Assembly (NCBI RefSeq): GCF_055900595.2
Contig: NZ_CM148325.1
Strand: one strand, 5' to 3'
Length of the DNA: 64,000 nucleotides
Both the position numbers and the translations under genes were made by a program. The notes under the pieces are model-generated. The model had not been told where the DNA came from. It worked only from the letters and a program-made list of their open reading frames with translations, and searched no databases. Numbering within the stretch: position 1 is the first letter of the stretch; each line of letters starts with the position of its first letter. This document shows, in pieces, positions 42,260 to 51,950 of this stretch.

Positions 42260-44236
42260 ATGTCTGACGACATGTCTATGGGTTTGCCTTCGTCAGCGGG
42301 CGAACACGGTGTACTACGCTCCATGCAGGAGGTTGCAATGAGCTCCCAGGAAGCCAGCAAGATGCTGCGTACTTACAATATTGCCTGGTGGGGCAATAAC
42401 TACTATGACGTTAACGAGCTGGGCCACATCAGCGTGTGCCCGGACCCGGACGTCCCGGAAGCTCGCGTCGATCTCGCGCAGTTAGTGAAAACTCGCGAAG
42501 CACAGGGTCAGCGTCTGCCTGCACTGTTCTGTTTCCCACAGATCCTGCAGCACCGTTTGCGTTCCATTAACGCCGCGTTCAAACGAGCGCGGGAATCCTA
42601 CGGCTATAACGGCGATTACTTCCTCGTTTATCCGATCAAAGTTAACCAGCACCGCCGCGTGATTGAGTCCCTGATTCATTCGGGCGAACCGCTGGGCCTG
42701 GAAGCCGGTTCCAAAGCCGAGTTGATGGCGGTGCTGGCACATGCTGGCATGACCCGTAGCGTCATCGTCTGCAACGGTTATAAGGACCGCGAATATATCC
42801 GCCTGGCATTAATTGGCGAGAAGATGGGCCACAAGGTCTATCTGGTCATTGAGAAGATGTCAGAAATTGCCATTGTGCTGGATGAAGCAGAACGTCTGAA
42901 TGTCGTTCCTCGTCTGGGCGTGCGTGCACGTCTGGCTTCGCAGGGCTCGGGTAAATGGCAGTCCTCCGGCGGGGAAAAATCGAAGTTTGGCCTGGCGGCG
43001 ACTCAAGTACTGCAACTGGTTGAAACGCTGCGTGAAGCCGGGCGTCTCGACAGCCTGCAACTGCTGCACTTCCACCTCGGTTCGCAGATGGCGAATATTC
43101 GCGATATCGCGACAGGCGTTCGTGAATCCGCGCGTTTCTATGTGGAACTGCACAAGCTGGGCGTCAATATTCAGTGCTTCGACGTCGGCGGCGGTCTGGG
43201 CGTGGACTATGAAGGCACCCGTTCTCAGTCTGACTGCTCCGTAAACTACGGCCTCAATGAATACGCCAACAACATCATCTGGGCGATTGGTGATGCGTGT
43301 GAAGAAAATGGTCTGCCACATCCGACGGTAATCACCGAATCGGGTCGTGCGGTGACTGCGCATCACACCGTGCTGGTGTCGAATATCATCGGCGTGGAAC
43401 GTAACGAATACACGGTGCCGACCGCGCCTGCAGAAGATGCACCGCGCGCCCTGCAAAGCATGTGGGAAACCTGGCAGGAAATGCACGAACCGGGAACTCG
43501 CCGTTCTCTGCGTGAATGGTTACACGACAGCCAGATGGATCTGCACGACATTCATATCGGCTACTCTTCCGGCACCTTTAGCCTGCAAGAACGCGCATGG
43601 GCTGAGCAGCTTTATTTGAGCATGTGCCATGAAGTGCAAAAGCAGCTGGATCCGCAAAACCGTGCTCATCGTCCGATTATCGACGAGCTGCAGGAACGTA
43701 TGGCGGACAAAATGTACGTCAACTTCTCGCTGTTCCAGTCGATGCCGGATGCGTGGGGGATCGACCAGTTGTTCCCGGTTCTGCCGCTGGAAGGGCTGGA
43801 TCAAGTGCCGGAACGCCGCGCTGTGCTGCTGGATATTACCTGTGACTCAGACGGTGCTATCGACCACTATATTGATGGTGACGGTATTGCCACGACAATG
43901 CCTATGCCGGAGTACGATCCGGAGAATCCGCCGATGCTCGGTTTCTTTATGGTCGGCGCATATCAGGAGATCCTCGGCAACATGCACAACCTGTTCGGTG
44001 ATACCGAAGCGGTTGACGTGTTCGTCTTCCCTGATGGTAGCGTAGAGGTAGAACTGTCTGACGAAGGCGATACCGTGGCGGACATGCTGCAATATGTGCA
44101 GCTCGATCCGAAAACGCTGTTAACTCAGTTCCGCGATCAGGTGAAGAAAACCGATCTTGATGCTGAACTGCAACAACAGTTCCTGGAAGAGTTCGAGGCA
44201 GGTTTGTACGGTTATACCTATCTTGAAGATGAATAA
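42260..44236 (+). CDS. speA: Biosynthetic arginine decarboxylase
   Basis: Start set at [45 protein letters not shown] (658 aa) matching E. coli SpeA. Confidence 0.95.
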
Positions 44237-44382
44237 TTAAGATTATTCTGCTGGCGGGGCGATTTATTTACGTAAATCGGCCCGCTTTCTTTTTATATAT
44301 TCTTAAAAATAATTTAGCTGCTTTTCTGGTGATGCTGCCAACTTACTGATTTAGTGTATGATGGTGTTTTTGAGGTGCTCCA

Positions 44383-44658
44383 GTGGCTTCTGTTTCTATC
44401 AGCTGTCCCTCCTGTTCAGCTACTGACGGGGTGGTGCGTAACGGCAAAAGCACCGCCGGACATCAGCGCTATCTCTGCTCTCACTGCCGTAAAACATGGC
44501 AACTGCAGTTCACTTACACCGCTTCTCAACCCGGTACGCACCAGAAAATCATTGATATGGCCATGAATGGCGTTGGATGCCGGGCAACCGCCCGCATTAT
44601 GGGCGTTGGCCTCAACACGATTTTCCGCCATTTAAAAAACTCAGGCCGCAGTCGGTAA
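44383..44658 (+). CDS. insA: IS1 InsA (transposition inhibitor / N-terminal part of InsAB-prime transposase)
   Basis: 91-aa [46 protein letters not shown]… identical in character to IS1 InsA. Confidence 0.9.
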
Positions 44659-45080
44659 CCTCGCGCATACAGCCGGGCAGTGACGTCATCGTCTGCGCGG
44701 AAATGGACGAACAGTGGGGATACGTCGGGGCTAAATCGCGCCAGCGCTGGCTGTTTTACGCGTATGACAGGCTCCGGAAGACGGTTGTTGCGCACGTATT
44801 CGGTGAACGCACTATGGCGACGCTGGGGCGTCTTATGAGCCTGCTGTCACCCTTTGACGTGGTGATATGGATGACGGATGGCTGGCCGCTGTATGAATCC
44901 CGCCTGAAGGGAAAGCTGCACGTAATCAGCAAGCGATATACGCAGCGAATTGAGCGGCATAACCTGAATCTGAGGCAGCACCTGGCACGGCTGGGACGGA
45001 AGTCGCTGTCGTTCTCAAAATCGGTGGAGCTGCATGACAAAGTCATCGGGCATTATCTGAACATAAAACACTATCAATAA
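44577..45080 (+). CDS. insB: IS1 InsB (C-terminal transposase part, expressed by -1 frameshift fusion with InsA)
   Basis: 167-aa [67 protein letters not shown]… matching IS1 InsB; overlaps insA in the -1 frame. Confidence 0.85.
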
Positions 45081-45158
45081 GTTGGAGTCATTACCTGCTT
45101 TTCTTATTAAATAATCTCCCTACAATCGCTGCATTAATTAAATGCAGAGGGAACGGTT

Positions 45159-45890
45159 ATGAAAAAATGGAAAGTACGTAGCGCGTTGGTGGCATTAATC
45201 GTGCTGCTGGCTGGTTGTTCCAGTAATGCGCAGTATAATAGCAGTGCATCAGGCAATGTCGGCACCGCCTGGGGTGGGGATGTGCACTCAACGGTTCAGG
45301 GCGTATCTGCTGAACGAGCCTGGCGCGATCCGGCAGAGATGATCGTTATTAGTTATTCGACTAATGTTCCTTCCGGCTACGACCGCGTTTATAGCATTCG
45401 TATTAACGAACTGGAATATGCTATTCGCGATGGTAATTTTAATTCTCTACCTATTACGCGGGTTTATGATTCATCCAATAATGAACCACGCTATATTGTC
45501 CATGCCAGAGTCGGAATGAATTATCAATTATATGTCCGTAATTACAGTCGTAACACCAACTACGAGATCGTTGCTACGGTTGATGGCCTGGATGTGCTGA
45601 ACGGCAAGCAAGGTTCGCTGAATAACAACGGTTATATTGTGAATGCCGGAGATTCGTTAGCGATTAAAGGATTCCGCAAAGATAAACATACCGAAGCGGC
45701 TTTTCAGTTCGCCAACGTTGCTGATTCCTACGCAGCCAATTCGGCGCAAGGCGATGTGCGTAATACCGGTGTAATCGGCTTTGCCGCCTTTGAATTACAA
45801 GGCCCGGCGAAAAACGCGCTGCCGCCGTGCTCTGGACAAGCCTTTCCGGCAGATAACAATGGCTATGCGCCGCCACCGTGTCGGAAATAG
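45159..45890 (+). CDS. Lipoprotein of unknown function (signal peptide with lipobox LLAGC)
   Basis: 243-aa ORF MKKWKVRSALVALIVLLAGCSSNAQ…; Asn/Tyr-rich mature region; sits between speA and speB. No family recalled. Confidence 0.65.
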   Translation: MKKWKVRSALVALIVLLAGCSSNAQYNSSASGNVGTAWGGDVHSTVQGVSAERAWRDPAEMIVISYSTNVPSGYDRVYSIRINELEYAIRDGNFNSLPITRVYDSSNNEPRYIVHARVGMNYQLYVRNYSRNTNYEIVATVDGLDVLNGKQGSLNNNGYIVNAGDSLAIKGFRKDKHTEAAFQFANVADSYAANSAQGDVRNTGVIGFAAFELQGPAKNALPPCSGQAFPADNNGYAPPPCRK

Positions 45891-45957
45891 CAACCTCGCT
45901 TGATGCCTCGCCCATTTAAGGCGATAATTAGCACAAACTTGTGTTTCACAAATCCAA

Positions 45958-45997
45958 CCCTTCCTCGTCGGGCCTAACGACGCGGAAGGGTTTTTTT
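45958..45997 (+). terminator. Rho-independent terminator downstream of the lipoprotein gene
   Basis: CCCTTCCTCGTCG-GGCCTAA-CGACGCGGAAGGG followed by TTTTTTT; 13-bp stem with one mismatch. Confidence 0.55.
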
Positions 45998-46025
45998 ATA
46001 TCGACTTTGTAATAGGAGTCCATCC

Positions 46026-46946
46026 ATGAGCACCTTAGGTCATCAATACGATAACTCACTGGTTTCCAACGCCTTTGGTTTTTTACGCCTGCCGATGAAC
46101 TTCCAGCCATATGACAGCGATGCTGACTGGGTGATTACTGGCGTGCCGTTCGATATGGCCACTTCTGGTCGTGCGGGTGGTCGCCACGGTCCGGCAGCGA
46201 TCCGTCAGGTTTCGACGAATCTGGCCTGGGAACACAATCGCTTCCCGTGGAATTTCGACATGCGTGAGCGCCTGAACGTCGTGGACTGCGGCGATCTGGT
46301 ATATGCCTTCGGAGATGCCCGTGAGATGAGCGAGAAGCTGCAGGCGCACGCCGAGAAGCTGCTGGCTGCCGGTAAGCGTATGCTCTCCTTCGGTGGTGAC
46401 CACTTTGTTACGCTGCCGCTGCTGCGCGCTCATGCGAAGCATTTCGGCAAAATGGCGTTGGTACACTTTGATGCCCACACCGATACCTACGCTAACGGTT
46501 GTGAATTTGACCACGGCACCATGTTCTATACCGCGCCGAAAGAAGGTCTGATCGACCCGAATCATTCTGTGCAGATTGGTATTCGTACCGAGTTTGATAA
46601 AGACAACGGCTTTACCGTGCTGGACGCCTGCCAGGTGAACGATCGCAGCGTGGATGACATTATCGCCCAGGTGAAACAGATTGTGGGTGATATGCCGGTT
46701 TACCTGACCTTTGATATCGACTGCCTGGATCCTGCTTTTGCACCAGGCACCGGTACGCCGGTAATTGGCGGCCTGACCTCCGATCGCGCCATTAAACTGG
46801 TACGCGGCTTGAAAGATCTCAACATCGTTGGGATGGACGTAGTGGAGGTGGCTCCGGCATACGATCAGTCGGAAATCACCGCTCTGGCTGCGGCGACGCT
46901 GGCGCTGGAGATGCTGTATATCCAGGCGGCGAAAAAGGGCGAGTAA
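46026..46946 (+). CDS. speB: Agmatinase (agmatine ureohydrolase)
   Basis: 306-aa ORF with arginase-fold motifs ([22 protein letters not shown]) matching E. coli SpeB. Confidence 0.95.
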
Positions 46947-48185: not shown

Positions 48186-50177
48186 ATGTCCTCACGTAAA
48201 GAGCTTGCCAATGCTATTCGTGCGCTGAGCATGGACGCAGTACAGAAAGCCAAATCCGGTCACCCGGGTGCCCCTATGGGTATGGCTGACATTGCCGAAG
48301 TCCTGTGGCGTGATTTCCTGAAACACAACCCGCAGAATCCGTCCTGGGCTGACCGTGACCGCTTCGTGCTGTCCAACGGCCACGGCTCCATGCTGATCTA
48401 CAGCCTGCTGCACCTCACCGGTTACGATCTGCCGATGGAAGAACTGAAAAACTTCCGTCAGCTGCACTCTAAAACTCCGGGTCACCCGGAAGTGGGTTAC
48501 ACCGCAGGTGTAGAAACCACCACCGGTCCGCTGGGTCAGGGTATTGCCAACGCAGTCGGTATGGCGATTGCAGAAAAAACGCTGGCGGCGCAGTTTAACC
48601 GTCCGGGCCACGACATCGTCGACCACTACACCTACGCCTTCATGGGCGACGGCTGCATGATGGAAGGCATCTCCCACGAAGTTTGCTCTCTGGCGGGTAC
48701 GCTGAAGCTGGGTAAACTGATTGCGTTCTACGATGACAACGGTATTTCTATCGATGGTCACGTTGAAGGCTGGTTTACCGACGACACCGCAATGCGTTTC
48801 GAAGCTTACGGCTGGCACGTTATTCGCGATATCGACGGTCATGACGCGGCATCCATCAAACGCGCAGTAGAAGAAGCGCGCGCAGTGACTGACAAACCGT
48901 CCCTGCTGATGTGCAAAACCATCATCGGTTTCGGTTCCCCGAACAAAGCCGGTACCCACGACTCCCACGGTGCGCCGCTGGGCGACGCTGAAATTGCCCT
49001 GACCCGCGAACAGCTGGGCTGGAAATACGCGCCGTTCGAAATCCCGTCTGAAATCTATGCTCAGTGGGATGCGAAAGAAGCAGGCCAGGCGAAAGAATTC
49101 GCATGGAACGAGAAATTCGCTGCTTACGCGAAAGCTTATCCGCAGGAAGCTGCTGAATTTACCCGCCGTATGAAAGGCGAAATGCCGTCTGACTTCGATG
49201 CCAAAGCGAAAGAATTCATCGCTAAACTGCAGGCTAATCCGGCGAAAATCGCCAGCCGTAAAGCGTCTCAGAATGCGATTGAAGCGTTCGGCCCGCTGTT
49301 GCCGGAATTCCTCGGCGGCTCTGCTGACCTGGCACCGTCTAACCTGACCCTGTGGTCTGGTTCTAAAGCAATCAACGAAGATGCTGCGGGTAATTACATC
49401 CACTACGGTGTTCGCGAGTTCGGTATGACCGCGATTGCTAACGGTATCTCCCTGCACGGTGGCTTCCTGCCGTACACCTCCACCTTCCTGATGTTCGTGG
49501 AATACGCACGTAACGCCGTACGTATGGCTGCGCTGATGAAACAGCGTCAGGTGATGGTTTACACCCACGACTCCATCGGTCTGGGCGAAGATGGCCCGAC
49601 TCACCAGCCGGTAGAGCAGGTCGCTTCTCTGCGCGTGACCCCGAACATGTCCACATGGCGTCCGTGTGACCAGGTTGAATCCGCGGTCGCGTGGAAATAC
49701 GGCGTTGAGCGTCAGGACGGCCCGACTGCGCTTATCCTCTCCCGTCAGAACCTGGCGCAGCAGGAACGTACTGAAGAGCAGCTGGCAAACATCGCGCGCG
49801 GTGGTTATGTGCTGAAAGACTGTGCCGGTCAGCCGGAACTGATCTTCATCGCTACCGGTTCTGAAGTTGAACTGGCGGTTGCTGCCTACGAAAAACTGAC
49901 TGCTGAAGGCGTGAAAGCGCGCGTGGTTTCCATGCCGTCTACCGACGCATTCGACAAGCAGGATGCGGCTTACCGTGAGTCTGTACTGCCGAAAGCGGTT
50001 ACTGCACGCGTTGCGGTGGAAGCTGGCATTGCTGACTACTGGTACAAGTATGTTGGCCTGAACGGTGCTATCGTCGGCATGACCACCTTCGGTGAATCTG
50101 CTCCGGCAGAGCTGCTGTTTGAAGAGTTCGGCTTCACCGTTGACAACGTTGTTGCGAAAGCAAAAGAACTGCTGTAA
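48186..50177 (+). CDS. tktA: Transketolase 1
   Basis: Start set at [40 protein letters not shown] (663 aa) matching E. coli TktA. Confidence 0.95.
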
Positions 50178-50196
50178 TCGGTAAGATGCTTTGTGA

Positions 50197-50225
50197 GAAG
50201 GGCCGCGAAAGCGGCCCTTTTTTTA
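50197..50225. terminator. Bidirectional rho-independent terminator between tktA and the convergent SPFH gene
   Basis: GAAGGGCCGC-GAAA-GCGGCCCTTTTTTT hairpin. Confidence 0.55.
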
Positions 50226-51131
50226 CTTAGTAGAGATAAACGGAACTGTACTGCCGGGGATCATGGTATCGGGTAGCTTACCGTCCCAACGCTCAGCAGT
50301 GGTGAGGGCAACAAGTCCGGGATTATCCCGCAGAGCTTCACCGCGCAGGCGGATCGCTTCTGCTTCAGCCGCACTTTTTAAACGAATAGTTTCAGCCTCT
50401 GCCGCGCCTCTTACGCGAATAGTCTCAGCTTCTGCTTTGGCTGCCGCCAGTTTACTGTCTGCTTCTGCCTGGGCCTGAGTTACCGCTATTTGCGCCTGGA
50501 TTTTCTCTGTTTCCAGATTTTGCTTACGTGTGGCAATGGCGACTTCTGCTTTCATTCGATCTTCAATCGATTTTTCATAAGCGTCAGAAAAATCAATATT
50601 TTCAATCTGGACACCATCAATCACCACCGGGCCAACAACGGCTTTACGCATTGCATTTTGCAGATCCTGAACCAGTTTTGTACGATCCTGTACCGCGCTG
50701 ATGGCGGTATATTGGCCGAAAACGTTCTCCAGTTGAGTTGGCAACTGACGGACAATCAGACGATCTTTTAATGCTTCAATGGTGTTGTAGGTGGTATAAA
50801 CCGCGCCTGCTTCTGAAGGTTTAATGTGGAAGCTGACTGATACTGTCATTTGTGCCGGTTGCTGGTCGCGGCTGTAGGCCTGTAATCCCTGATAAACCAC
50901 AGCCTGATTACGCGTGGAAATTTTCTCTACGCTTTCCATAAAAGGGATCTTAAAACCCAGACCCGGCTCGGCAACTTTTACGATTTTTCCGTAGCGCAGC
51001 AAAATGCCGCGTTCACCTTCATTAACGGTGTAATACGAGAGAAATGGCAGCACAACCACGGTAATCACGCCAATGGCGATAGCAATAGATTTTTGTGGGC
51101 GAAATGAGGTTATTGAAACAGGTGCTTTCAT
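50223..51131 (-). CDS. SPFH/band-7 (prohibitin/flotillin-like) membrane protein with C-terminal Ala/Glu-rich coiled-coil repeats
   Basis: 302-aa ORF with N-terminal TM helix, SPFH core (YTVNEGERGILLRYGKI…) and repetitive tail (AEAETIRVRGAAEAETIRLKSAAEAEAIRLRGEA). Confidence 0.7.
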   Translation of the reverse strand: MKAPVSITSFRPQKSIAIAIGVITVVVLPFLSYYTVNEGERGILLRYGKIVKVAEPGLGFKIPFMESVEKISTRNQAVVYQGLQAYSRDQQPAQMTVSVSFHIKPSEAGAVYTTYNTIEALKDRLIVRQLPTQLENVFGQYTAISAVQDRTKLVQDLQNAMRKAVVGPVVIDGVQIENIDFSDAYEKSIEDRMKAEVAIATRKQNLETEKIQAQIAVTQAQAEADSKLAAAKAEAETIRVRGAAEAETIRLKSAAEAEAIRLRGEALRDNPGLVALTTAERWDGKLPDTMIPGSTVPFISTK

Positions 51132-51506
51132 GAGAATCTTCCTTGAGTAAAGCGTGGGAATATGTCACATGAGGTGAGGAGAAAACAGCCAACAGGTGAG
51201 AATTCAGAATCTATAAAGGGGGAGAGCGAAAAACATCGGCTAAAAAAGTATGTTTTCGAACATTCAATAGATAAATAGAGATATGCATCACAAATACATA
51301 GGCAGATAAAACATTGGTTTTGTGATAAACATAGCAAACACAAACTTGACTTTATAAGTATAAATTTCATGTTGTTGTTATTTAACATTTTATTATTTTG
51401 GTTCATGTTTTTTTTCTTCTCGCGTGCCCAATTGCTTTCATTAAATCGCACGAGTATTTTATTTTTACCGCCGGACGGTACCCTAAAAATAAAATAAGGA
51501 TAATTT

Positions 51507-51950
51507 ATGCGGCTTATTGATTATTTTCCAGAATCATCAATCTCAGTTATACATTCAGCAAAAGATTGGCAGGAAGCTATCAATTTCTCGATGGCATCAT
51601 TGCTGGATAAAAACTATATCAGCGAGAATTACATTCAGGCTATTAAAGATTCCACCATTAACAATGGCCCTTATTATATTCTCGCACCAGGCGTGGCAAT
51701 GCCTCATGCGCGACCGGAATGTGGGGCGCTTAAAACCGGGATGTCTTTGACGTTACTTAAACCAGGCGTTTATTTTCCGGGGAATGACGAACCGATTAAA
51801 TTACTTATCGGTCTTTCTGCTGCCGATGCCGATTCGCACATTGGTGCTATTCAGGCGTTAAGTGAATTGCTGTGCGAAGAAGAAATACTTGAACAACTCT
51901 TAACTGCAACATCAGAAAAACAATTAGCGGACATTATCAGCCGCGAATAA
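51507..51950 (+). CDS. cmtB: Cryptic mannitol-type PTS EIIA component
   Basis: 147-aa ORF matching E. coli CmtB. Confidence 0.9.
   Translation: MRLIDYFPESSISVIHSAKDWQEAINFSMASLLDKNYISENYIQAIKDSTINNGPYYILAPGVAMPHARPECGALKTGMSLTLLKPGVYFPGNDEPIKLLIGLSAADADSHIGAIQALSELLCEEEILEQLLTATSEKQLADIISRE

Follow-up and report, generated by a model that had tools for sequence, protein, structure and literature searches.

A prohibitin-family SPFH gene between tkt and cmtB, present in one third of Escherichia coli genomes and apparently lost from K-12-type strains

The E. coli literature counts four SPFH proteins, HflK, HflC, QmcA and YqiK (PMC10434171), a number that reflects the fact that this literature works with K-12. 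HflK and HflC face the periplasm (PMC10434171), and the same orientation has been predicted (Hinderhofer 2009, PMC2636767) for the prokaryotic prohibitins, or SPFH4, a group in which no bacterial member had been studied (PMC2636767) and whose members are reported usually to replace HflK/C, a tendency rather than a strict criterion (PMC2636767). In P. aeruginosa, deletions of SPFH genes caused almost no phenotype (PMC13086221), so that any role of the protein described here may be subtle. In the searchable literature no experimental work turned up, either for this protein or for any bacterial member of SPFH4, and gene-specific searches were empty. The locus analysed here lies in the window, a stretch of 64,000 nucleotides from contig NZ_CM148325.1 (assembly GCF_055900595.2), and encodes a fifth SPFH protein, conserved and under selection, in one E. 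coli genome of three. Its importance is modest, in that RefSeq already carries the gene as 'prohibitin family protein', the family is known, and so is this type of presence/absence polymorphism. Natural carriers and non-carriers, together with K-12 genetics in the same species, nonetheless offer a convenient test of whether HflKC is duplicated by bacterial prohibitins.

The gene and the parts of its product are located as follows.

50223..51131, minus strand: SPFH/Band-7 'prohibitin family protein' gene (open reading frame, Pfam Band_7, and PGAP with the same 909-nt coding sequence)
50502..51029, minus strand: codons of the SPFH domain, residues 35-210 (Pfam; AlphaFold2 alpha/beta domain 33-181 with pLDDT >90; Foldseek)
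51036..51098, minus strand: codons of the predicted N-terminal membrane anchor, residues 12-32 (AlphaFold2 helix; hydrophobic IAIAIGVITVVVLPFLSYY; HflC signal-anchor alignment)
50337..50468, minus strand: codons of four 11-residue Ala/Glu-rich repeats, residues 222-265 (direct repeats, 33-bp spacing)

The product comprises 302 residues and begins at an ATG, with a Shine-Dalgarno sequence, AAGGAAG, at 51138-51144. The initial annotation had read from the letters alone an SPFH membrane protein with a repetitive Ala/Glu-rich tail and had proposed a Pfam search, and its reading was borne out: the Band_7 model (PF01145), aligned over positions 2-176 of 176, matches the domain at E 5.6e-32 with 111.6 bits, the cut-off being 23.6, and the tail resolves into four units (AEADSKLAAAK, AEAETIRVRGA, AEAETIRLKSA and AEAEAIRLRGE) that show up at the DNA level as a 33-bp period over about 50337-50474. 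Alleles differ in this region by whole 11-residue units (one fewer in Kluyvera and in P0011, two fewer in E. albertii P0013), so that the register of the helix is kept. An AlphaFold2 monomer model of the whole protein (pLDDT 84.8) contains a transmembrane helix, the SPFH domain and a single long helix of 87 residues (183-269) that includes all four repeats, reproducing the succession of N-terminal anchor, SPFH domain and C-terminal coiled-coil helix that is the architecture of the superfamily. The anchor helix is modelled at block pLDDT 83-92, and the C-terminal 30 residues are conserved and have pLDDT <50 in the monomer. Three positive charges (K2, R11 and K14) lie N-terminal to the hydrophobic anchor with no negatives among them, and the 15 residues that follow it carry a net charge of +1, a modest bias.

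A profile built from 45 homologs found HflC (E 1.3e-20), HflK (5.6e-13) and prohibitin (9urz_B, 8.6e-11, profile residues 21-264 aligning to 9-253; PHB2 8rrh_B, 1.1e-10), with QmcA and stomatin weaker. The fold comparison gave a similar order, the top Foldseek matches being HflC (7vhq_G, 2.4e-17) and human PHB2 (2.3e-15), then erlin, stomatin and QmcA, all five at probability 1.00; all of these were solved as membrane-attached oligomeric SPFH assemblies, and the present protein was modelled as a monomer. Similarity to prohibitins thus extends over the full length in both profile and Foldseek comparisons and supports the SPFH4 or 'prohibitin family' label. The NCBIfam equivalogs of HflC and HflK (TIGR01932, TIGR01933, NF008259 and NF008181) missed their cut-offs widely (60.5 vs 134.4 bits in the case of HflC and 37.4 vs 159.4 in that of HflK, the other two scores being 53.5 vs 427 and 34.3 vs 660), as did that of flotillin FloT (NF058507, 17.3 vs 700 bits). 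There is no hflK-hflC pair at this locus, the true pair being elsewhere in the genome, and hflKC was found in 5,425 of the 5,426 E. coli genomes, so that virtually every one of the 1,818 carriers of the SPFH gene has it as well. The operon that marks the stomatin/QmcA-NfeD type (SPFH1) is missing too: the neighbours are tkt and cmtB and no NfeD reading frame was found within the flanks, as had been noted from the first. Nor is there a constant partner gene, genomic contexts differing between genera, with unrelated neighbours in Mixta and Arenimonas. Judged by sequence, the protein belongs to the HflK/C-prohibitin branch, as a prokaryotic prohibitin (SPFH4) closest to HflC, HflK and the prohibitins.

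The initial annotation called SPFH proteins common accessory genes; the idea of an acquired insertion did not survive comparison with other species. E. albertii has the gene at the same site, in Kluyvera it directly adjoins tkt, and in Klebsiella spallanzanii it stands beside the epd-pgk-fbaA cluster, as in Kluyvera; synteny shared across three genera implies that it is not an inserted island. Compared with orthologs from E. coli, E. albertii and Kluyvera, dN/dS is 0.02-0.08, within E. coli as well, denoting strong purifying selection that has held over a divergence of dS >2.5 and ruling out a pseudogene or decaying gene. In 5,426 complete E. coli genomes the gene was found at the tkt-cmtB site 1,818 times (33.5%). 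Some match was obtained in 1,830 genomes, and in 1,818 of these at least 80% of the gene is covered; the 909-nt frame is intact in the strains inspected. Alleles of 245 residues labelled 'partial' are not truncations, since in each of the three places read their end coincides with that of a contig, an assembly artefact; a 266-residue form bears the same label, and both forms have hundreds of database members. Carriers include ST131 strain JJ1887 and phylogroup F strain SMS-3-5, which we take to represent extraintestinal pathogenic lineages. K-12 and BL21 are without the gene, their intergenic region here measuring 313 bp. The initial annotation expected none at this position in K-12 and would have been mistaken had K-12 and most E. 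coli carried it; in MG1655 the corresponding 313-bp tktA-cmtB region has nothing annotated. The synteny indicates that the gene is ancestral at this locus and was lost in K-12-type strains.

The surroundings of the gene contain the following features.

48186..50177, plus strand: tkt (transketolase), convergent neighbour (open reading frame; PGAP 'tkt' in the 99.8%-identical strain 2013C-4282)
51507..51950, plus strand: cmtB (PTS mannitol-type IIA), divergent neighbour (open reading frame; PGAP annotation)
50198..50226, no strand assigned: terminator hairpin common to tkt and the SPFH gene (AAGGGCCGC-GAAA-GCGGCCCTT followed by a T-run; RNA folding)
51132..51506, no strand assigned: AT-rich divergent promoter spacer separating the SPFH gene from cmtB (375 bp, 33.1% GC)
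51156..51214, minus strand: upstream blocks on the SPFH side of the spacer, with conservation reaching from E. coli to Kluyvera (alignment of the window, two E. coli strains, E. albertii and Kluyvera)
51277..51336, no strand assigned: two CRP-like candidate sites, AGAGATATGCATCACA at 51277-51292 and TGTGATAAACATAGCA at 51321-51336 (pattern search, 2 mismatches each)
51423..51506, plus strand: cmtB-proximal 84 bp with 98% identity between both haplotypes (segment identities and in-register comparison)

The SPFH gene, monocistronic and standing singly between tkt and cmtB, converges on tkt, as first described, at a distance of 45 bp. The hairpin between the two ends tkt on the plus strand, its T-run overlapping the SPFH stop codon (50223-50225), and folds with -26.4 kcal/mol on the plus and -18.1 on the minus strand (z = -4.5 on both, none of 200 shuffles being as stable). 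A simple terminator scan had missed this hairpin, which RNA folding confirmed. A search for RNA genes gave a sole, sub-threshold Rfam match over the same hairpin (30.5 vs 43 bits) and no family above threshold in the spacer. The very AT-rich region of some 375 bp that had been remarked before cmtB is likewise real, its GC content comparing with 49.4% for the whole window and falling in the lowest 0.5% of 375-bp windows. Since the K-12 tktA-cmtB region has 32.9% GC, this property is common to both haplotypes, and the spacer is the normal promoter region of cmtB, of which K-12 has a diverged version, rather than DNA brought in with the SPFH gene. Upstream of the SPFH gene, the block CATGTGACATATTCC (51156-51171) holds a possible extended -10 element, TGACATATT (51159-51167), and a second block, ATAGATTCTGAATT, follows at 51200-51214; both are missing from K-12-type strains, and a promoter role for them is possible. 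A consensus promoter scan found no sites. The K-12 cmtB promoter is bound and activated by CRP (PMC3105977), and K-12 and E. albertii both retain the TCACA half-site of 51288-51292; CRP-like matches are not enriched over the whole window (31 found vs 28 expected), so that the two in the spacer are candidates only. Two other features of the spacer were rejected, namely a 107-residue reading frame (51128-51451, minus strand) that is spurious, being of low complexity and, in L003, L004 and E. albertii, interrupted by stop codons, and a 13-nt perfect inverted repeat upstream of cmtB that is unexceptional as an RNA structure (z = -1.1).

The K-12-type allele is short of about 1.06 kb, and what remains of its spacer is homologous to that of carriers at only about 51% identity. 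A gapped MAFFT alignment of the distal spacers (50-51%, against 48 +/- 4% when shuffled) misleadingly suggested no homology, a reading overturned by ungapped comparison, in which K-12 intergenic positions 45-229 line up in perfect register with window positions 51238-51422; their identity is 51%, whereas shuffled sequences reach 30 +/- 3% (maximum 42%), and no other offset exceeds 38%. The homology is thus real, and it gives way at 51423, the sharp boundary of the haplotype-specific segment, to the nearly identical stretch before cmtB. The locus is structurally unstable in other ways as well, with REP/BIME insertions and an IS1-mediated deletion besides the K-12-type deletion.

These data suggest a periplasm-facing SPFH4 ring or cage whose gene is an old resident of the tkt locus and whose absence from K-12-type strains is a loss allele, an explanation that, taken whole, we consider somewhat on the probable side. 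The N-terminus would be cytoplasmic and the helix of residues 12-32 a single-pass inner-membrane anchor, placing the SPFH domain on the periplasmic face of the membrane. Because the two sides of the anchor differ only modestly in charge, the argument for this topology leans mainly on homology to HflC, with whose signal-anchor the anchor and first strands align. The 87-residue repeat helices would pack side by side into a closed homo-oligomeric ring or cage, like those of HflK/C and mitochondrial prohibitins, the conserved C-terminal 35 residues closing its top. Such a cage would fence off a patch of inner membrane and control the access of membrane proteins to its contents, a function parallel to that of HflKC being the most likely. 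The leading candidate for a client is the FtsH protease, purely by analogy, and another envelope-spanning machine is possible. The gene would be expressed alone, from a promoter in the AT-rich spacer that it has in common with cmtB. The deletion allele of two thirds of E. coli is probably tolerated because the core HflKC covers an overlapping role, and the pattern of loss fits such redundancy and, equally, a niche-specific role.

It is also conceivable that the protein is of a mobile-element type, belonging to conjugation machinery or to phage-host conflict (superinfection exclusion, or FtsH-dependent manipulation of lysis and lysogeny), and that the chromosomal copy was domesticated or captured. 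Relatives do occur on mobile DNA, including a 73%-identical paralog in the F-type transfer operon of an Enterobacter IncFII/IncR plasmid (traB - hypothetical - prohibitin - hypothetical - traV), further copies on Pseudomonas conjugative plasmids (about 59% identity) and, beside genes for TopB, RadC, anti-restriction protein, ArdC and CbtA, in ICE-like surroundings (62-72%), and homologs of ~50% identity in 350-kb jumbo phages (GAP32, fHe-Yen9-04 and Serratia phage BF); the protein itself matches PHROG 200 at 2e-62. The chromosomal copy, however, has no mobile-element hallmarks, is bordered by tkt and cmtB (or epd) across three genera, kept its purifying selection over the whole divergence noted above, and has syntenic orthologs of 82-96% identity compared with at most 73% for the mobile paralogs. 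No PADLOC defence model matched, and a defence system was rejected as such, with 0 PADLOC-DB 2.0 families at E <= 0.01. We judge this alternative improbable; the link to phage or stress functions raised in the initial annotation holds for the wider family, by way of its jumbo-phage, plasmid and ICE paralogs, but not for the chromosomal copy, which has no tie to mobile elements or known defence.

A third reading would turn the protein around, making it a stomatin- or QmcA-like scaffold with its N-terminus outside and its SPFH domain inside, organising a microdomain on the cytoplasmic face. QmcA and stomatin are significant matches in sequence and fold (8z5g_A, 3.4e-7 by profile and 4.9e-12 by Foldseek), and the charge bias of the anchor is indecisive; yet the best sequence, profile and fold matches are to the periplasm-facing HflC and HflK and to prohibitins, which face the intermembrane space, all positive charge before the anchor is N-terminal, and the NfeD partner typical of stomatin-type operons (PMC2636767) is missing. 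This orientation therefore seems quite improbable to us. Patchy presence in 33.5% of genomes, a GC3 of 0.44 compared with 0.62 for tkt, and the instability of the locus might instead point to a recently acquired islet or a decaying remnant devoid of current function. Against this stand the gene order shared with E. albertii, Kluyvera and Klebsiella spallanzanii, the low dN/dS also within E. coli, the intact frame, the coverage of at least 80% in nearly all genomes with a match, and the contig-end origin of the abundant 'partial' proteins, which largely refute it and leave it very improbable.

Returning to the periplasm-facing cage, one third of E. coli may build a second one, a homo-oligomeric bacterial prohibitin, competing or cooperating with HflKC for FtsH or scaffolding envelope-spanning machines, with the two alleles forming an old polymorphism, maintained or introgressed. 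We offer this extension as rather unlikely; its scaffolding of type IV secretion is suggested by the tra-operon paralogs, and its old, maintained or introgressed polymorphism by the spacer beside the deletion, so diverged between alleles. If it were true, quality control of membrane proteins, tolerance of aminoglycosides or phage lysogeny would set carriers apart from K-12.

Among described systems, the FtsH-modulating HflC/HflK cage (PDB 7vhp, 7vhq, 7wi3 and 9cz1) is the nearest, with an N-terminal signal-anchor, SPFH domain and long helix in common and, probably, the periplasm-facing orientation; HflC ranks first in the sequence, profile and fold comparisons, with 24% identity over nearly the full length. 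The present protein differs in having neither the ~45-residue insertion of HflC nor the long N-terminal extension of HflK, in being encoded by a single gene rather than by an hflK-hflC pair in the hfq-hflX operon, so that it would need to form a homo-oligomer, and in varying within a species in which hflKC is core. Prokaryotic prohibitins (SPFH4) and PHB1/PHB2 resemble it in length (about 270-300 residues), in architecture and in having no NfeD partner. By sequence it is nearer to HflC than to PHB, PHB2 being the second-best fold match, and whereas SPFH4 is reported rarely to co-occur with HflKC (PMC2636767), here the two co-occur in essentially every carrier. The QmcA-YbbJ and stomatin-NfeD pairs (SPFH1) have the SPFH fold and cage-forming helix in common with it, but match more weakly, include an NfeD gene and probably have the opposite orientation. 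The paralogs of mobile elements and phages (F-type tra operon, ICEs and jumbo phages; PHROG 200) are 50-73% identical over residues 28/30-302, and differ in their diverged N-terminal anchors and mobile genomic contexts.

The gene between tkt and cmtB is an intact reading frame of 302 codons beginning with ATG, whose product contains a full-length Band_7/SPFH domain at residues 35-210 (Pfam, E 5.6e-32; 111.6 bits against a cut-off of 23.6) and, at residues 222-265, four 11-residue units (AEADSKLAAAK, AEAETIRVRGA, AEAETIRLKSA and AEAEAIRLRGE) that show up at the DNA level as direct repeats spaced by 33 bp. It is surrounded by the following features:

48186-50177, plus strand: tkt, convergent neighbour of the SPFH gene
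Between the tkt and SPFH stop codons: hairpin AAGGGCCGC-GAAA-GCGGCCCTT, then a T-run overlapping the SPFH stop codon
50223-51131, minus strand: SPFH gene
51138-51144, minus strand: ribosome-binding site of the SPFH gene, AAGGAAG
51132-51506: spacer from the SPFH gene to divergent cmtB, 375 bp, 33.1% GC
51156-51171 and 51200-51214: conserved blocks just upstream of the SPFH gene, kept from E. coli to Kluyvera
51277-51292 and 51321-51336: two candidate CRP-like sites, 2 mismatches each

The initial annotation had described an SPFH-domain protein with a repetitive Ala/Glu-rich tail, convergent to tktA. This observation is real, the two stop codons lying only 45 bp apart, and its interpretation is supported with two corrections, concerning the direction of the gene's gain or loss and the spacer. 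The hairpin in the gap folds much more stably than shuffled sequence does, in either orientation (z = -4.5), and so serves both tkt and the SPFH gene as a terminator.

The gene is an already known, annotated member of a known family, named 'prohibitin family protein' in RefSeq (e.g., WP_000646925.1 in strain 2013C-4282; over a 1,901-bp query, this strain and the window share 99.8% identity). Some match to it occurs in 1,830 of 5,426 complete E. coli genomes, and at least 80% of the gene in 1,818, with carriers including SMS-3-5, an O145 strain and the ST131 strain JJ1887. Only one of the 1,842 matching places in these genomes is a plasmid record, the others being chromosomal, and all records that were listed or inspected have it between tkt and cmtB; among the records listed without it, BL21 derivatives included, tkt leads directly to cmtB. 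The suggestion that K-12 has no gene here was correct, the tktA-cmtB intergenic region of MG1655 (313 bp) containing no annotated features, and the objection that the gene might be present in K-12 and most E. coli fails, because it is missing from both.

Comparison with related species points to an ancestral gene lost from K-12-type strains rather than gained, contrary to its initial reading as an accessory gene. The E. albertii ortholog (96% amino-acid identity) occupies the same cmtB-tkt site, and that of Kluyvera intermedia (86%) is likewise convergent to tkt, its other neighbour being epd-pgk-fbaA since Kluyvera has no cmt cluster; Klebsiella spallanzanii shares the epd-pgk-fbaA side, its contig stopping short of the tkt side. 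Purifying selection on the gene is strong: comparing the window with other E. coli alleles gives a dN/dS of 0.07-0.08, with E. albertii about 0.03 (at dS 0.7) and with Kluyvera 0.02-0.03. Alongside these values and the shared synteny, a functionless remnant or recent islet is a highly improbable reading.

Missing from the K-12-type allele is roughly window 50180-51237 (about 1.06 kb), comprising the shared terminator, the entire coding sequence and some 105 bp on its upstream side; about 44 bp with a different tkt terminator hairpin stand there instead. The remaining part of the K-12 interval runs colinear to the window spacer without a single indel, and is 98% identical over the cmtB-proximal 84 bp, but only 51% identical over the next 185 bp. 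The latter is nevertheless clear homology, since shuffled sequences give 30 +/- 3% and every other offset at most 38%; a gapped-alignment control that had suggested no homology between these distal stretches was wrong, as this ungapped register demonstrates. Distal divergence between K-12 and the window is about as great as that between E. coli and E. albertii over the same stretch, and the jump to near-identity, at about 51423-51433, is abrupt. Recent laboratory loss is thereby ruled out, and the gene-less allele is either old or was brought in by recombination from a diverged lineage.

Regarding the very AT-rich region reported before cmtB, its length and composition stand (33.1% GC against 49.4% for the whole window, within the lowest 0.5% of 375-bp windows), but not its distinctiveness, the K-12 intergenic region being equally AT-rich (32.9% GC). 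The spacer is an ordinary divergent promoter region, and its reading as a mobile-element scar was rejected, as was a 107-aa ORF within it, which is not conserved. It matched no Rfam family, and a consensus promoter scan returned zero sites; conserved block 51156-51171 includes a possible extended -10, TGACATATT. One CRP-like half-site is kept in K-12 and E. albertii, and the K-12 cmtB promoter is bound and activated by CRP (PMC3105977). Directly upstream of the cmtB ribosome-binding site lies a perfect 13-nt inverted repeat (51455-51496; TATTTTATTTTTA - 16 nt - TAAAAATAAAATA, inner ACCG/CGGT stem), which K-12 has unchanged and E. albertii has in part. Because its stability as RNA is not unusual (z = -1.1), it is more likely to act as a DNA operator or to have arisen by chance, the sequence being AT-rich.

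The tkt-cmtB locus is structurally busy. Two other E. coli carriers have REP/BIME-type units between the tkt and SPFH stop codons, corresponding to window gap 50178-50222: one in L004 (1279-1485; about 160 bp in total) and two in L003 (1279-1671; about 350 bp), each bordered by a terminator-hairpin copy that looks as though it had been duplicated along with the unit. In E. coli FDAARGOS_1260 (L011 3501-5529), IS1A stands in place of the SPFH gene's 5' three quarters, cmtB, cmtA and the start of yggP, through an IS1-mediated deletion from inside the SPFH gene into yggP, seen in one genome. Many 245-aa 'partial' database entries, considered as shortened alleles, are contig-end artefacts.

A further difference lies between speA and speB, presumably adjacent in K-12, which in the window are separated by about 1.8 kb (44237-46025) that includes:

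44577-45080: IS1 transposase ORF (Pfam DDE_Tnp_IS1, 2.3e-78)
45159-45890, plus strand: predicted lipoprotein ORF, 243 aa, signal peptide ending LAGC

E. coli strain U1 (NZ_CP041359.1) matches window 44200-46050 at 100% identity. The predicted lipoprotein has no Pfam or PHROG match and is 58% identical to the product of a 242-aa gene in the corresponding Kluyvera loiP-speA interval (L007 9125-9853); its gene appears to be a second ancestral one that K-12 lacks. In Kluyvera-type contigs this interval (8950-10000) holds the lipoprotein gene in L007 and L009 and speB (agmatinase) in L008, and the two thus alternate among close relatives; the window has both.

Sequence and structure comparisons place the SPFH protein in the HflK/C-prohibitin branch of its superfamily. 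A single-sequence search of solved structures gave HflC (1.3e-13) and HflK (1.7e-10) as best matches, then QmcA, stomatin and prohibitin, while a profile of 45 homologs gave HflC at 1.3e-20, HflK at 5.6e-13, prohibitin at 8.6e-11, PHB2 at 1.1e-10, and QmcA and stomatin at about 1e-6 to 1e-7, prohibitin alone aligning end to end (residues 21-264). The protein shares 24% identity with HflC and scores far short of the equivalog cut-offs that NCBIfam sets for HflC, HflK and FloT. An AlphaFold2 model (mean pLDDT 84.8) comprises a membrane helix (12-32), an SPFH alpha/beta domain (33-181), an unbroken helix (183-269) and a C-terminal tail that is conserved, yet modelled poorly; Foldseek matched it in the PDB at probability 1.00 to HflC, PHB2, erlin1/2, PHB1, stomatin and QmcA, whose solved forms are all membrane-attached oligomeric SPFH assemblies.

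Three positive charges (K2, R11, K14) and zero negative ones precede the anchor, which together with the first strands aligns with the HflC signal-anchor; since HflK/C faces the periplasm (PMC10434171), a cytoplasmic N-terminus and a periplasmic SPFH domain would be expected, and a cytoplasm-facing, stomatin-like orientation seems quite unlikely. The long helix with its 11-residue periodicity may be the wall-forming element of SPFH cages. Alleles vary in the repeat region by whole 11-residue units (one fewer in Kluyvera and in one E. coli allele, two fewer in one E. albertii allele), as would be predicted for a helix that has to stay in register. The product is thus likely to form a homo-oligomeric ring or cage around a membrane patch, on the periplasmic face of the inner membrane. 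FtsH would be its leading candidate client, by analogy with HflK/C and mitochondrial prohibitins, and functional overlap with core HflKC would account for the tolerated loss in two thirds of strains. We lean slightly towards this overall picture, and are less confident of the FtsH step on its own.

The family is common on mobile DNA, which keeps alive another role, that of scaffolding envelope-spanning transfer machines or acting in phage-host conflict. A 73%-identical paralog sits between traB and traV in the F-type transfer operon of the Enterobacter hormaechei IncFII/IncR plasmid pMB9539_2 (L021 4911-5795), hinting at a role for the subfamily alongside type IV secretion machinery; copies occur on Pseudomonas conjugative plasmids (about 59% identity) and in ICE-like contexts in Klebsiella oxytoca and Testudinibacter (62-72%), homologs in 350-kb jumbo phages (about 50%), and the protein matches PHROG 200. 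The suggested phage link thus holds for the family, but the chromosomal gene has no mobile-element context, no PADLOC match and a long-standing synteny, and for its product we consider such a role unlikely.

In the scheme of Hinderhofer et al. 2009, the branch to which the SPFH protein is assigned is the 'p-prohibitin' or SPFH4 subfamily; its proteins lack an NfeD partner and had, according to that paper, been studied in no bacterium (PMC2636767). The natural carriers and non-carriers within E. coli offer a setting for testing bacterial prohibitin function. Whereas SPFH4 and HflK/C were reported to occur seldom in one genome (PMC2636767), the E. coli SPFH gene always stands alongside hflKC, which is found in 5,425 of 5,426 complete genomes.
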